Of a DNA stretch of 64,000 nucleotides, positions 15,695-18,620 are shown in pieces; position 1 is the stretch's first letter; the number at the start of each line of letters is the position of its first letter. The notes beneath the pieces were generated by a model. That model was not told the origin of the DNA. It worked only from the letters and a program-made list of their open reading frames with translations, and did no database searches. A program made the position numbers and the translations under genes. This DNA is from a virus: the IMG/VR virus record IMGVR_UViG_3300035152_000011. One strand, 5' to 3'.

Positions 15695-15815
15695 GATTTC
15701 ATCGTCCGCTTCGTGTAGTCCTCAGCCATTCTGCGCAGAGGAAATCGTCTCGATCTGTCGGTCATCGAGCTGACATTCCAAGCGTGCCGTGTCATCGAGC
15801 GGGCTGGACAGAGAT

Positions 15816-17052
15816 GTCTCAATCTGTAAGCCATTGAGCGGGCATTGCGGCGAGACGACGCGAGTACAGTCTCAACCTATTTAGCCGTTGAGCGGGCATT
15901 GCGGTCCAGGCTGTTGGTGGAGAGATCGAACAACAGTCTCAATCTATGAGCCATTGAGCAGGCATTGCGGCTTCGAGCAGACCGTAGCGGTACCAGTCTC
16001 AATCTATGAGCCATTGAGCGGGCATTCCGGCCCAGCCCCGCACACCCAAGACGTACTACCTGCAATCGTCTCAATCTATGAGCCATTGAGCGGGCATTCC
16101 GGCGCGCGCGAGCCGGTGTGCATCGCGGCTCAGCCGGTCGTCTCAATCTATGAGCCATTGAGCGGGCATTCCGGCGGCCTGCTGTCCCCGACGCGTTTTC
16201 GCGACTTCGTCGAGTCTCAATCTATGAGCCATTGAGCGGGCATTCCGGCCTCGTGCAGCTCGTCTCACCGAGACGAGATATACGAGCTGTCTCAATCTAT
16301 GAGCCATTGAGCGGGCATTCCGACGTGCGGCCTTCAGCATCGTCTCGTCGATGGTGGCATGTCTCAATCTATGAGCCATTGAGCGGGCATTCCGGCCGGT
16401 GCGACGGGGTCGAAATCGTCGCTGTCTCAATCTATTCAGCCATTGAGCGGGCATTCCGGCTTGCCGACCGACGCCGAGATTCTCAAGAAGGGGATAGTCC
16501 CAATTTATGAGCCATTGAGCGGGCATTCCGGCGCGATCCGTGCCGGCCATGCGGATGATGAGGTTGAGTCCCAATCTATGAGCCATTGAGCGGGCATTCC
16601 GGCGCAGCGGTCGCTGGGGCACTACTGCGGTGCACAGTGTCTCAATCTATGAGCCATTGAGCGGGCATTCCAGCACGCCCACTTGTAGTAGAAGCCCATG
16701 GAAATCTGCCGTCTCAATCTATGAGCCATTGAGCGGGCATTCCGGCACGAACGGCTGGTCCGTGAGTGCTCGTATGTCATCGGTCTCAATCTATGAGCCA
16801 TTGAGCGGGCATTCCGGCACGAACGGCTGGTCCGTGAGTGCTCGTATGTCATCGGGAAGCACTGTGGAACCTGTCTCAATCTATGAGCCATTGAGCGGGC
16901 ATTCCGGCACCTCGTACGGGCGCTCAACGACGATGCAGGCACTCAGTCTCAATCTATGAGCCATTGAGCGGGCATTCCGGCCCATCCGCGCGGGCAAGCG
17001 GCTCCTTTTCGAGGAAGTCTCAATCTATGAGCCATTGAGCGGGCATTCCGGC
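15816..17052 (-). CRISPR. CRISPR array of 18 repeats (36 bp, consensus GTCTCAATCTATGAGCCATTGAGCGGGCATTCCGGC on the plus strand) and 17 spacers.
   Basis: Direct repeats at 15816, 15869, 15936, 15996, 16068, 16140, 16214, 16289, 16361, 16424, 16497, 16568, 16639, 16711, 16783, 16873, 16946 and 17017. Consensus copies cluster at the 17052 (cas12-proximal) end and decayed copies at the 15816 end, with further remnants back to about 15745. Spacer lengths are 17-54 bp and mostly 35-37. The minus-strand repeat RNA ends in a CUCAAU/AUUGAG hairpin next to the spacer, which fits a type V crRNA read in the same direction as the cas12-like gene. Confidence 0.9.
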
Positions 17053-18620
17053 GGCGGTTCGGTTTTCTTGTGGCGTTTTGCCCACCTGGAAGTCGTTTTG
17101 CGAGCGGTTGGTTTTCTCCACTCGCCGGCTCGGTAGAGCGTCCACATATTTTGAGTACTTATATCGTCGCAGTCCCGCTGCGCACCACACCCCTCGCAGC
17201 GGATCATCCGCTGACCGTTCACGGGGGTAACGTGCCCGCAGCTGGGGCAGCTCGCGGTCGTGAATTCCGCGGCCACAATTCGCATGTTGTCAGCGCCGAA
17301 CACTTCGCGCAGCACCTCTACCGTCTCACCTGGCGCCGCGTGTTGCCCTTGACGTTGTGCCTTCTTCGGTAGTCCGTGTTCCTCCTTGATCTCCTTATGG
17401 GATGTGTTTTTGACGATCACAGTTGCGTATTGGCGACGTAGCTCGCGCACCCACTCGCGCAGGCGTGCGCGCCGTCCTGTCACACTGCGACGACGGCACC
17501 CGCATTCGTAGCGCCAGAGGTGCATCTCGCGCGCGACCCAAGCATCCTGCGTGAAGGTAAGGACGCCGAGGCTACGTAGCTTTCGCACAGCCCGCTGACA
17601 CGATGTCGTTTGTCCGATCACAGGCCAGCGCGACTTCGCAGCGACAAGTTGCTGGTCGCGGTGCGAGCGGATTCTATCCGCGCGGTCAGAGCGCTCCGTC
17701 CACTCAGGGGGCATCCGCAGCTCGTGTGTACAATTGGCAGCGTCACGCGCGTAGCCCAACCGCCAGGAACCGTCAGGCAGCTTGCGCCAACTTACGTCCA
17801 CTGCAACGACGCCTTCGGGGGCCTCGTCTGTGCGCACATCAACGTCCTTGCACGTAAAAGCGACGGACCACACCTCGCGGTCAGCAACGTAGCGACGCCG
17901 TACGTGCACCCAGACGATTCGCCCAGACAGCTCACGGTGCTTCTCGATCCGGATCGGTTCACAGAAGACAGGGGTGCGGCCGTTGCTACCGATCCGGATC
18001 TCTACCGTGTGTCGCCCGAGGCCTCCGCGTGCACGCCGTCCCGTACGTGAATCGGGTGCTTTGTGCACCCGCGCATACGACGTGGGTATTACATTGGGTT
18101 GGATTTGGACTGCTGCGACGTCGCCTTTCTGCCAGGACCGGAAGCGCACTGTACGGAGTACGGATGTGCTCTTCCAGGCCGCTGCGAAGGCCTGTTCGAT
18201 GACGAGGTACGTCCCCCAGTAGAGCCCCTTCTGGATGAACACTGCCCGAAGCGCCTTGGTGTCTAGCAGCGGCACGGCGCGGACGGCGGCACGGACCGCG
18301 GTCCAGTGTGCTTTGCATTTAGTGCACTGGCAGCTCTCGTGGCCAGTCGGGTGGGCCTTGTGATGCTCTTCACACGCATCGCAGCCGCAGTACTTCTTGT
18401 GCGGAGGTGACGTCTTCTTCCATTCGGCTTGGCACTCCTTGCACTGACATCTACCCTGATGCGGCGGAGGCGGCGGTGAGTCGCCACCCCATCCGATCCG
18501 GCGACGCTCGTTCTCGGCCTCGACGAGTGCGTTGTAGTATTGACGGCCCAACTTCATCTGTTGGAGCAGGTCTGGATCTCGGCTAGGACGGGCCCCGTAC
18601 TTGTATACGCGTGTTGCCAT
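17025..18620 (-). CDS. Cas12/TnpB-like RNA-guided RuvC-family protein (compact type V effector candidate, 531 aa).
   Basis: TnpB-like N-terminus MATRVYKYGARP...LGRQYYNALVEAENERRR, a RuvC-I-like block VVAVDVSWRKLPDGSWRLGYA, and a C-terminal Zn-finger/RuvC-III block FTTASCPSCGH...CEGCGAQRDCDDISTQNMW, plus an N-terminal Cys/His cluster. The stop codon TAG (17025-17027) lies inside the first array repeat. Confidence 0.75.
   Translation of the reverse strand: MATRVYKYGARPSRDPDLLQQMKLGRQYYNALVEAENERRRIGWGGDSPPPPPHQGRCQCKECQAEWKKTSPPHKKYCGCDACEEHHKAHPTGHESCQCTKCKAHWTAVRAAVRAVPLLDTKALRAVFIQKGLYWGTYLVIEQAFAAAWKSTSVLRTVRFRSWQKGDVAAVQIQPNVIPTSYARVHKAPDSRTGRRARGGLGRHTVEIRIGSNGRTPVFCEPIRIEKHRELSGRIVWVHVRRRYVADREVWSVAFTCKDVDVRTDEAPEGVVAVDVSWRKLPDGSWRLGYARDAANCTHELRMPPEWTERSDRADRIRSHRDQQLVAAKSRWPVIGQTTSCQRAVRKLRSLGVLTFTQDAWVAREMHLWRYECGCRRRSVTGRRARLREWVRELRRQYATVIVKNTSHKEIKEEHGLPKKAQRQGQHAAPGETVEVLREVFGADNMRIVAAEFTTASCPSCGHVTPVNGQRMIRCEGCGAQRDCDDISTQNMWTLYRAGEWRKPTARKTTSRWAKRHKKTEPPPECPLNGS

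Follow-up and report, generated by a model that had tools for sequence, protein, structure and literature searches.

The stretch of DNA considered here, one strand of 64,000 nucleotides (nt) from the IMG/VR virus record IMGVR_UViG_3300035152_000011 and referred to throughout as the window, carries on its minus strand a gene for a 531-amino-acid (aa) Cas12-type effector (17025..18620), which leads directly into a CRISPR array (15747..17052). A first-pass annotation had read this arrangement as a true type V CRISPR locus that lacks adaptation genes, carried by a phage-like element, and our analysis supports that description. The effector is a full-length relative of Cas12m, and the clade to which it belongs is a distinct branch within the known subtype V-M, not a new Cas12 lineage.

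As annotated at first pass, the open reading frame (ORF) lies directly upstream of the array on the minus strand; it is intact over all 531 aa, from an ATG start to a TAG stop. Comparison with a sister phage of ~90% identity gives a ratio of non-synonymous to synonymous change (dN/dS) of 0.15, indicating purifying selection on the gene. The PADLOC model for Cas12u1 (type V-U1, since renamed V-M/Cas12m) matches residues 120-493 with E=3.7e-34; from Pfam there is a weak, sub-threshold match to Cas12f1-like_TNB at residues 448-490 alone, and an NCBIfam search returned no match. For the family alignment we combined the window protein with 26 of the 28 homologues found (38-76% identity), leaving out the distant outliers P0028 and P0029. 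The resulting 27-sequence profile aligns end-to-end with Cas12m structures in the PDB, namely 23vw (E=9e-41), Cas12m2 (8hio/8hhl; 4e-23), GoCas12m (8pm4; 6e-18) and UnCas12m4a (4e-12), such that homology to Cas12m covers the whole length of the protein (WED-REC-RuvC-TNB).

The AlphaFold2 model of the effector (mean predicted local distance difference test score, pLDDT, 85.8; predicted template modelling score, pTM, 0.73) gives the same ranking. The best Foldseek match is Cas12m2 (E~5e-21, template modelling (TM) score ~0.6), then GoCas12m (1e-16), with all of the top four being Cas12m; Cas12f and TnpB follow at ~1e-10 (Cas12f ~1e-9 to 1e-10) and Cas12p at 1e-7, and the weakest matches are to CasPhi (1e-6, TM 0.26), Cas-lambda (5e-6) and Cas12n (9e-4). 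None of types V-J (CasPhi), V-L (Cas-lambda), V-F (Cas12f) or V-N is thus the closest relative by Foldseek. Profile and fold ranking together rule out a new Cas12 lineage, as well as membership of CasPhi, Cas12f, Cas12n or Cas12p; the earlier suggestion of ‘possibly a new compact Cas12 lineage’, to be checked by profile and structure searches, is not borne out, as those searches lead to Cas12m/type V-M and the repeats are of V-M type too.

Within this superfamily the clade is small. A profile search of 1.84 billion representatives recovered 1,512 clusters at E<=1e-30, with a clear gap in the scores: ~13 full-length representatives exceed 500 bits, the next lie at ~300, and the remainder level off near 200-270 bits. 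At 50% identity, the clade amounts to ~13 clusters inside a superfamily of >1,500.

A first distinguishing feature is the RuvC triad. The motifs cited at first pass are all real: RuvC-I D275 in VAVDVSW, the zinc finger C458/C461/C475/C478, and RuvC-III D483/D485 in RDCDD. The RuvC domain had also been treated as intact, which does not hold, as the RuvC-II Glu is replaced by an invariant lysine, Lys404. Asp275 (codon GAC; 17796..17798, minus strand) is invariant in the 27 family members, and aligns with the RuvC-I Asp of 23vw and with the corresponding His of Cas12m2; Lys404 (codon AAA; 17409..17411, minus) sits at the position of the RuvC-II catalytic Glu of 23vw and of Asp485 in Cas12m2, and is Lys in 27/27 members. 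The TNB zinc finger and the RuvC-III Asp pair (17166..17249, minus) fall in invariant columns of the family alignment and can be aligned to Cas12m structures; they are followed by S-T-x-N where Cas12m has N-A-A-x-N. Thus the triad D275-K404-D485 is invariant in all 27 family members, and D-K-D is found in each of the 13 full-length clade representatives; an N-terminally truncated representative (P0038) reads D-S-D. We compared these with 133 other top-ranked sequences (132 non-clade representatives and one clade fragment), amongst which the triads are D-E-D in 99, N-D-D in 10, N-E-D in 8 and D-K-D in 3. At the RuvC-II position, Lys is present in 13/13 clade representatives versus Glu in 109 of the 132 others, and position 413 shows the reciprocal change, being Glu in 12/13 clade members and Arg/Lys in most D-E-D relatives. 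Published Cas12m triads comprise HEK/HQK, HDD, NDD, DED/NED and DND (PMC10442227, PMC11013384); D-K-D is not among the types described in those two papers, and the effector accordingly falls outside the described triad types.

The second distinguishing feature lies in the recognition lobe. At the place of the Roof/REC2 insertion, the window protein has three tandem Cys-knuckles, read from the sequence as H54-C58-C60-C63, H74-C78-C80-C83 and H94-C97-C99-C102-H105 (18306..18461, minus), within a short, Pro-rich segment; knuckles of the form C-x-C-x2-C-x2-H occur once or twice in other members, and C99, C102 and H105 are conserved across the family alignment. The C-C-C-H knuckle is confined to the clade (0/133 other superfamily sequences), the Roof region has a median length of 38 aa in the clade versus 90 aa elsewhere in the superfamily, and the coiled-coil columns of Cas12m appear as gaps in profile alignments. 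The effector hence lacks the Arg-rich α-helical Roof/REC2 coiled-coil insertion with which type V-M proteins clamp the non-target strand and the PAM-distal heteroduplex (PAM, protospacer-adjacent motif). In the AlphaFold2 model the knuckle region forms three short helices (pLDDT 63-72), and the Cys3-His knuckles presumably bind zinc. Clade proteins span 470-530 aa and end in a conserved basic tail (PTARKTTSRWAKRHKK; 17064..17111, minus), disordered in the model (pLDDT <50), that lies directly upstream of repeat 1. We considered whether this stretch might be a DNA-level leader, and ruled it out because third codon positions vary: the tail (PTARKTTARFAKRHK) is kept as protein, with mean nucleotide identities over nine loci of 0.83/0.83/0.51 at codon positions 1/2/3.

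A Hamming scan of the array (minus strand) yields 19 repeats of 36-37 nt, separated by 18 spacers of 17-54 nt (mostly 35-39). Listed by their low coordinate from the gene outwards, the repeats start at 17017, 16946, 16873, 16783, 16711, 16639, 16568, 16497, 16424, 16361, 16289, 16214, 16140, 16068, 15996, 15936, 15869, 15816 and 15747; on the minus strand the repeat reads GCCGGAATGCCCGCTCAATGGCTCATAGATTGAGAC. The array reported at first pass is therefore real, and its count of 18 repeats and 17 spacers was one short in each case: the scan first gives 18 copies, 17 in register and one shifted by 1 nt (16425-16460), corresponding to the 37-nt indel copy at 16424-16460, and a further, degenerate repeat (15869-15905) is hidden inside an apparent 84-nt spacer. 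Two of the 19 repeats are 37 nt long, with a 1-nt loop insertion; 11 are identical to the consensus, and the three gene-distal ones carry 2, 3 and 11 mismatches. No copy of the repeat occurs outside the array on either strand of the window. The spacers comprise 17 distinct sequences of CRISPR-like length. The 36-nt spacer 4 (16747-16782) is present a second time within the 54-nt spacer 3 (16819-16872), of which it makes up the 3' two-thirds, again on the minus strand. A related array (L002) likewise holds a tandemly duplicated spacer, which suggests that such duplications reflect repeat-mediated recombination or slipped integration.

The 36-nt repeats of six family loci align gap-free, and share a fold in which a hairpin (repeat nt 14-19 with 29-34) is crossed by a pseudoknot helix (9-11 with 20-22). 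Over 14 repeats, including the diverged ones of locus L027, 126 of 126 cells are paired with 22 double changes; 0/500 shuffles reach this value, and helices slid by 1-3 columns pair in 26-41% of cells. Counted from the spacer, the helices fall at -28..-26 with -17..-15 and at -23..-18 with -8..-3, in the same register as the solved CRISPR RNA (crRNA) of PmCas12m (G(-28)-C(-26)/G(-15)-C(-17) and C(-23)-C(-20)/G(-3)-G(-6)), and the repeat of the MsCas12m plasmid is visibly similar to that of the window. The effector gene is thus accompanied by an adjacent array whose repeat forms the Cas12m crRNA scaffold, and from the matching register it follows that the array is oriented as the gene is, and that the crRNA should, as in Cas12m, consist of a repeat-derived 5' handle followed by the spacer. 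Rfam holds no family that matches the repeat.

A search for a trans-activating crRNA (tracrRNA), advised at first pass, was run on the DNA sequence of the window and found no anti-repeat: there is no reverse-complement copy with <=12 mismatches, and none >12 nt, in the 64 kb. This computational evidence speaks against a tracrRNA, as expected of a system that uses crRNA alone. At L027 (11495-11897) we observe repeats that have strongly diverged within one array, each with its own compensatory stem (CTCGAC/GTCGAG, CTCGAT/ATCGAG, CTCGGT/ACCGAG and CTCGGC/GCCGAG); the repeats of this old array have not been homogenised, and structural constraint has accompanied their drift.

Gene and array do not simply adjoin one another. 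Repeat 1 (17017..17052, minus) encodes the last 8 codons of the effector together with its TAG stop (17025-17027), which, as first noted, sits inside the repeat, at positions 26-28, giving an overlap of 28 nt. The same overlap is seen in seven of the nine family lineages, at offsets of 1, 10, 10, 23, 25 and 25 nt, with L025 and its lone repeat as the seventh; in the remaining two the array begins 6-8 nt past the stop. The amino acids that repeat 1 encodes are not conserved among lineages. D-E-D relatives show no such overlap in any case, their arrays beginning ~5-192 nt past the stop (151 nt in MsCas12m). We found no promoter-like site or convincing terminator between effector gene and array, and this, along with the overlap, supports the earlier proposal that the two are laid out for co-transcription with no separate leader.

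A guide-RNA scaffold that overlaps the 3' end of a nuclease ORF, as here with the stop inside repeat 1 at offsets of 1-25 nt in seven of nine lineages, is a trait of TnpB and its omega-RNA; the latter overlaps the TnpB ORF, and TnpB processes its own mRNA into omega-RNA (PMC10278001). Cas12m crRNAs retain ~30 nt of the repeat (PMC11013384), so that processing of repeat 1 would be expected to strip the stop codon from the effector mRNA. In L025 (6140-6169), an effector that is 44% identical to that of the window and also D-K-D (P0016) is followed by one repeat, overlapping the stop, and then by unique sequence; by analogy, this layout looks omega-RNA/TldR-like, with a single guide. The 40 nt downstream of that repeat gave no target among the sequences compared.

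The first-pass annotation had proposed that the spacers be searched for protospacers from which a PAM could be inferred, and no external protospacer was found. The 16 window spacers of >=24 nt have none in INPHARED or PLSDB, nor do PAM-proximal exact 24-mers of four newest-end spacers (1, 2, 4, 5) in IMG/VR; all family spacers, searched against the window and related loci, give only 14-19-nt chance matches and one self-match, in L005. Against their own 64 kb, the 18 window spacers have no match of >=20 nt. Spacer 2 does show a 16-nt exact match (spacer nt 14-29) at 60142-60157, about as expected by chance and leaving the PAM-proximal end uncovered. Spacer GC content is 0.59-0.65, in line with the 0.63 of the phage. 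The sole protospacer found is thus that of L005, where spacer 2 (11567-11602) of a 5-repeat array matches its own contig at 36/36 positions, on the same strand, at 13568-13603. One gene ends at 13546 and another, with a GTG start, begins at 13611; the site falls in the 64-nt gap that separates them, i.e. in the 5' untranslated region/ribosome-binding site, with the 5' flank ...GTGCGGGT and GGT adjoining. This match may reflect self-regulation by a non-cutting effector, or may be a by-product of spacer uptake from phage DNA.

Family arrays reach up to 30 repeats, and there are signs that they turn over. Contigs L001, L003 and L002 encode an identical effector and have spacers 2-15, as well as distal spacers, in common; L001/L003 and L002 carry different unique spacers at the gene-proximal position, and also differ by an internal deletion and a duplication. 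Because gene-proximal spacers differ and distal repeats are degenerate, acquisition appears to be polarised, next to the gene, and the sequences point to spacers being added by adaptation proteins that would be supplied in trans. In L101 (6220-6510), an independent assembly with 100% identity to the window on both flanks, repeat 1 is joined to spacer 15, leaving 5 repeats versus 19. A contig of the same phage from the Joint Genome Institute (JGI) keeps the 1,331-nt gene-free gap seen in the window, so the short array of L101 is probably an assembly shortcut through the repeats, and we have set it aside as evidence of spacer loss.

Solitary repeats of this type, at least seven, are dispersed in a metagenome-assembled genome (MAG) of the Acidimicrobiaceae (DAHWQF01), with both hairpin and pseudoknot partners intact (L095 ~101-137, 1938-1974, 2362-2399 and 7839-7875 (reverse); L070 7571-7608; L089). 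Their sites are the gaps between genes of a type IV pilus-like operon, where no effector is encoded close by, and they could be decoy RNAs, guide genes for a trans-encoded effector, or elements akin to repetitive extragenic palindromes (REP-like).

The ~101 ORFs of the window are closely spaced and, with few exceptions, lie on the minus strand; a Pfam sweep of them found just 22 families at E<=1e-6. The integrase, Ku, ligase, ThyX and helicase (UvrD) genes noted earlier around the locus are all present: Pfam and PHROGs identify an integrase, UvrD and Dda-like helicases, ThyX, Ku, an ATP-dependent ligase and a LigD-type phosphoesterase, as well as a PolX-like thumb domain, PARP, FHA and PAPS-reductase-like proteins. 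The same sweep of 101 ORFs gives no Cas1, Cas2, Cas4 or Y1 transposase/TnpA, and PADLOC shows no strong Cas1/Cas4 match, in agreement with the first-pass report that cas1, cas2 and cas4 are missing from the 64 kb; the window therefore does not hold the cas1 and cas2 of a complete adaptive CRISPR-Cas system, and neither gene is annotated in the flanks of nine related loci. Neither structural genes (Pfam, PHROGs) nor tRNAs were found in the window.

At the DNA level, no deposited phage record resembles the window. Its closest relatives are two IMG/VR viral contigs of 147-150 kb, which have at least 13 genes in common with it, amongst them that for an effector of 76% identity; two further samples hold an identical copy and a ~90% sister of the window phage, and clade relatives in general sit in viral contigs of 54-150 kb. 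Other family members have only the effector-array unit in common with the window, in neighbourhoods that are unrelated and phage-like, rich in small ORFs and also carrying HNH, Tad3, peptidase M23 and integrases, which suggests that the unit moves as a cassette. For the one conserved window protein tested, cultured-phage relatives are found mainly in phages of Pseudomonas, Vibrio and Xanthomonas; the ‘actinophage’ of the first-pass annotation is for this reason unsupported, and ‘ordinary-sized’ is not borne out by relatives of 147-150 kb. A pattern-limited scan with the effector profile found no member in 185,579 species genomes, and the window repeat core had no match in JGI metagenomes; a degenerate repeat pattern, able to match 37-nt variants only, gave 72 matches in genomes, most of them chance.

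Several other genes of the window deserve mention. A PARP-like protein (WGR, PARP regulatory and PARP catalytic domains) occurs together with Ku, ATP-dependent ligase and a PolX-like thumb domain, and with a LigD-type phosphoesterase elsewhere (PARP-like and end-joining genes at 19728-21293, 22033-22512, 22572-23573 and 40556-41488, all minus); PARP beside non-homologous end-joining genes is unusual in a bacterial virus. Two PAPS-reductase-like genes (28471-29571 and 49409-50905, minus; the related locus L004 has one too) and a DFP-like flavoprotein (36455-37645) may constitute a module for DNA modification or sulfur metabolism. Another gene (27591-27875, minus) encodes 94 aa with a CxxC...CxxC zinc ribbon, whose weak local match to the TNB region of the effector family (E=6e-4), along with a match to a PADLOC Cas12f model, probably does not reflect relatedness beyond the zinc ribbon. 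Lastly, in JGI sample 3300042731, where the gene order is window-like, the effector is called as its C-terminal 166 aa only, with ~1.1 kb left uncalled upstream, which could be a frameshift variant or a gene-caller artefact.

Drawing these findings together, we propose that the locus is probably a minimal, tracrRNA-less, V-M-like CRISPR system of a large phage, in which RNA-guided DNA binding without cleavage silences competitors and possibly the phage's own genes. Effector mRNA and pre-crRNA would form one transcript; the effector would bind the pseudoknot/hairpin of each repeat and process the precursor within it by a RuvC-independent activity, as Cas12m does, to give crRNAs in which a 5' handle of ~30 nt is joined to a guide taken from the spacer. 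The resulting ribonucleoprotein (RNP) would then recognise PAM-flanked double-stranded DNA and remain bound to it uncut, such that transcription or replication is blocked, the targets probably being phages/plasmids that compete for the same hosts and, at times, genes of the phage itself. As repeat 1 carries the stop codon of the effector, binding or cleavage there would also act on the effector's own mRNA, amounting to negative feedback comparable to that of TnpB and its omega-RNA. New spacers would enter at the gene-proximal end, via adaptation proteins acting in trans. That the system is in use is indicated by the purifying selection on the effector, the differing gene-proximal spacers behind an identical effector, the degenerate distal repeats and the agreement of spacer and phage GC content.

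A bolder version of this proposal, which we think somewhat unlikely, would see in the clade a living intermediate on the path from TnpB/omega-RNA to CRISPR: the mRNA would double as pre-crRNA with autoregulation through repeat 1, the coding 3' end of the gene would serve as leader for a host Cas1-Cas2 in trans, a nuclease-dead, Roof-less RNP of ~500 aa would act as the phage's repressor of rivals and of its own genes, and solitary decoy repeats would be a possible counter to it by hosts or rival elements.

A number of observations weigh against the silencing model. None of the databases searched (INPHARED, PLSDB, IMG/VR with exact 24-mers of 4 spacers) nor the related loci supplied an external protospacer; the evidence for polarised acquisition comes from one pair of arrays; and phage identity is drawn from relatives and gene content, there being no structural gene in the window. 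The suggested feedback cannot work identically in every lineage, as the stop of the L001 lineage occupies repeat nt 2-4 and is thus probably upstream of where processing takes place. With the DNA-clamping Roof replaced, binding strength may differ from that of Cas12m, and the K404/E413 swap could represent a rearranged but active site, as has been proposed for TnpB clades (PMC10691335).

This last point leads to the alternative in which the effector is an active RNA-guided nuclease that cuts competitor DNA in the manner of CasPhi/Cas12f, with Glu413, beside Lys404, restoring metal binding or serving as general base. The invariance of D275, D483 and D485 fits such an enzyme, as does the reciprocal 404/413 swap, which implies that the two residues are close in space, and for large TnpB clades it has been proposed that activity survives conserved RuvC-II rearrangements in which an alternative Glu is used (PMC10691335). 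In those clades, however, the lost Glu became Gly, not a cationic Lys placed in the metal site. Moreover, Cas12m proteins with D-E-D, H-D-D and N-D-D triads all bind DNA without cleaving it, and silence plasmids and phages (PMC11013384, PMC10442227); every Cas12m tested, even those with D-E-D, fails to cleave DNA (PMC11013384), and changing the HDD of Cas12m2 to DED did not restore cleavage (PMC10442227). The perfectly self-matching L005 spacer is tolerated, which, depending on the PAM, would fit a non-cutting effector better. From the sequences we infer that cleavage has been lost in the D-K-D clade: with an invariant Lys for the RuvC-II Glu, and every tested Cas12m binding without cutting (PMC11013384), silencing by binding is far likelier than cleavage, and an active nuclease seems to us distinctly unlikely. 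A further alternative to silencing of competitors is a role chiefly in regulating the phage's own or host genes, along TldR-like lines. The L005 self-match upstream of a GTG-start gene, the single repeat and fixed downstream guide of L025, the solo repeats in the pilus-like operon gaps of the MAG and the predicted nuclease-dead state of the effector would all suit a programmable regulator, although the self-match could be a by-product of spacer uptake, the 18 window spacers have no match of >=20 nt in their own 64 kb, and long arrays (<=30 repeats) turning over at one end are typical of defence/conflict. We consider it unlikely that regulation is the main function; such a role is nevertheless compatible with silencing of competitors, not exclusive of it.

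The remaining two alternatives would deny that there is a working CRISPR system at all. Were the locus a decaying or inert relic, with an effector pseudogene and a fossil array, then degenerate distal repeats, a lack of targets, the 166-aa C-terminal call in the JGI assembly of the same phage and the much shorter L101 array would be as expected; set against this are the intact 531-aa ORF with its dN/dS of 0.15, the retention of all key motifs by 27 homologues, the 11 of 19 repeats identical to consensus, a gene-proximal array end that differs between samples, and the 1,331-nt gap of the JGI contig by which the short array is probably an assembly shortcut. We regard a relic as highly improbable. 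The scenario that the first-pass annotation had named as its own refutation, an IS200/IS605-type TnpB with a nearby TnpA and its omega-RNA, next to unrelated tandem repeats, can be dismissed almost entirely. The protein is indeed TnpB-derived, with its weak Cas12f1-like_TNB match in Pfam, and the guide scaffold overlaps the 3' end of the gene as in TnpB (PMC10278001), but there is no Y1 or serine transposase among the 101 ORFs, the 19 repeats flank 17 distinct spacer sequences of CRISPR length, the repeats are homologous to those of V-M with a structure that covaries, the closest structures are Cas12m and not TnpB, and the pairing of effector and array is kept in nine lineages with unrelated phage backgrounds. 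Instead of transposon ends, a TnpA neighbour and a one-guide omega-RNA, we find a conserved phage context and a multi-spacer array; the lack of TnpA and the conserved array rule out an IS200/605 TnpB.

The clade, then, is a coherent, phage-restricted and previously undescribed branch of Cas12m; we found no published description of a D-K-D, knuckle-bearing, array-fused group. It shows another route to RuvC alteration, from Glu to Lys with a reciprocal Glu, and another solution for the REC ‘Roof’ in the form of zinc-knuckle-like modules, which bears on how clamping without cleavage evolved. The conserved overlap of stop codon and repeat 1 ties CRISPR arrays architecturally to TnpB omega-RNAs, and renders testable both an origin of arrays by duplication of an omega-RNA segment and autoregulation of an effector through its own mRNA, whilst arrays that turn over at one end without cas1-cas2 offer a tractable case for trans-acting spacer acquisition on phages. 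At 470-530 aa, clade members would also rank among the smallest natural DNA-binding, and probably non-cutting, Cas12 proteins, a size of practical interest for CRISPR interference (CRISPRi), base editing and epigenome editing, where Cas12m already serves.

Amongst known systems, the closest is Cas12m/type V-M (formerly V-U1; MmCas12m2, GoCas12m, MsCas12m, PmCas12m), which the window effector resembles in full-length sequence and fold. The two have in common homologous 36-37-nt repeats with the same hairpin and pseudoknot in the same register, no tracrRNA signal, no adaptation genes nearby, carriage on mobile elements and a non-canonical RuvC triad, and by analogy the window effector would be expected to bind DNA in a PAM-dependent manner without cleavage. 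The clade differs in its D-K-D triad, with a cationic Lys at RuvC-II and the reciprocal Glu413; in having 1-3 Cys3-His knuckles where Cas12m has an Arg-rich Roof/REC2; in size (470-530 aa versus ~540-690 aa); in its S-T-x-N after RuvC-III and conserved basic C-terminal tail; and in placing the stop inside repeat 1, as against the 151 nt between stop and array in MsCas12m and ~5-192 nt in other relatives. It has so far been found on phage-like contigs only, whereas V-M has been described mainly on plasmids (PMC11656645).

Virus-borne V-M/V-U1-like effectors have been mentioned before (PMC11656645, PMC12607003 and a myxophage preprint, bioRxiv 10.64898/2026.09.14.751636), and our IMG/VR scan also recovered many phage-borne D-E-D relatives. 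The preprint describes MvCas12m of myxophage MV-1, like the window effector a phage Cas12m-type protein encoded beside an array, without cas1/cas2/cas4, a tracrRNA or found protospacers; its claim to the ‘first phage Cas12m’ shows how sparsely such systems have been described. MvCas12m is 610 aa long, keeps D-E-D (D305, E463, D555), has 8 spacers and is interpreted as a possibly active nuclease, in contrast to the window clade, which is D-K-D, has no Roof and overlaps its own array.

More distantly, CasPhi (Cas12j) and Cas-lambda of huge phages are likewise compact, single-effector type V systems with no adaptation module and with their own crRNA processing, but they are distant fold matches to the window effector, active nucleases of 700-800 aa, and have unrelated repeats. 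TldR (a nuclease-dead, TnpB-like repressor), Cas12c and Cas12k offer precedents for RuvC proteins that are by nature deficient as nucleases and bind DNA under RNA guidance. A TldR has one guide, which is fixed, and controls host genes for flagellin or transport, and the single repeat of L025 and the self-target of L005 resemble such fixed-guide regulation; Cas12k works with Tn7 transposases, whereas the window system consists of multi-spacer arrays that turn over, on phages. Finally, the TnpB/omega-RNA systems of IS200/IS605 share with the window a guide scaffold that overlaps the 3' end of the nuclease gene, one transcript for mRNA and guide precursor, a triplex/pseudoknot scaffold core, small size and a TNB zinc finger. 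TnpB, however, is an active D-E-D nuclease with one ~150-nt scaffold and one guide, set between transposon ends and often accompanied by TnpA, whereas the phage system described here sets out a 36-nt repeat as an array with 18 spacers, outside any transposon context and with an altered triad.

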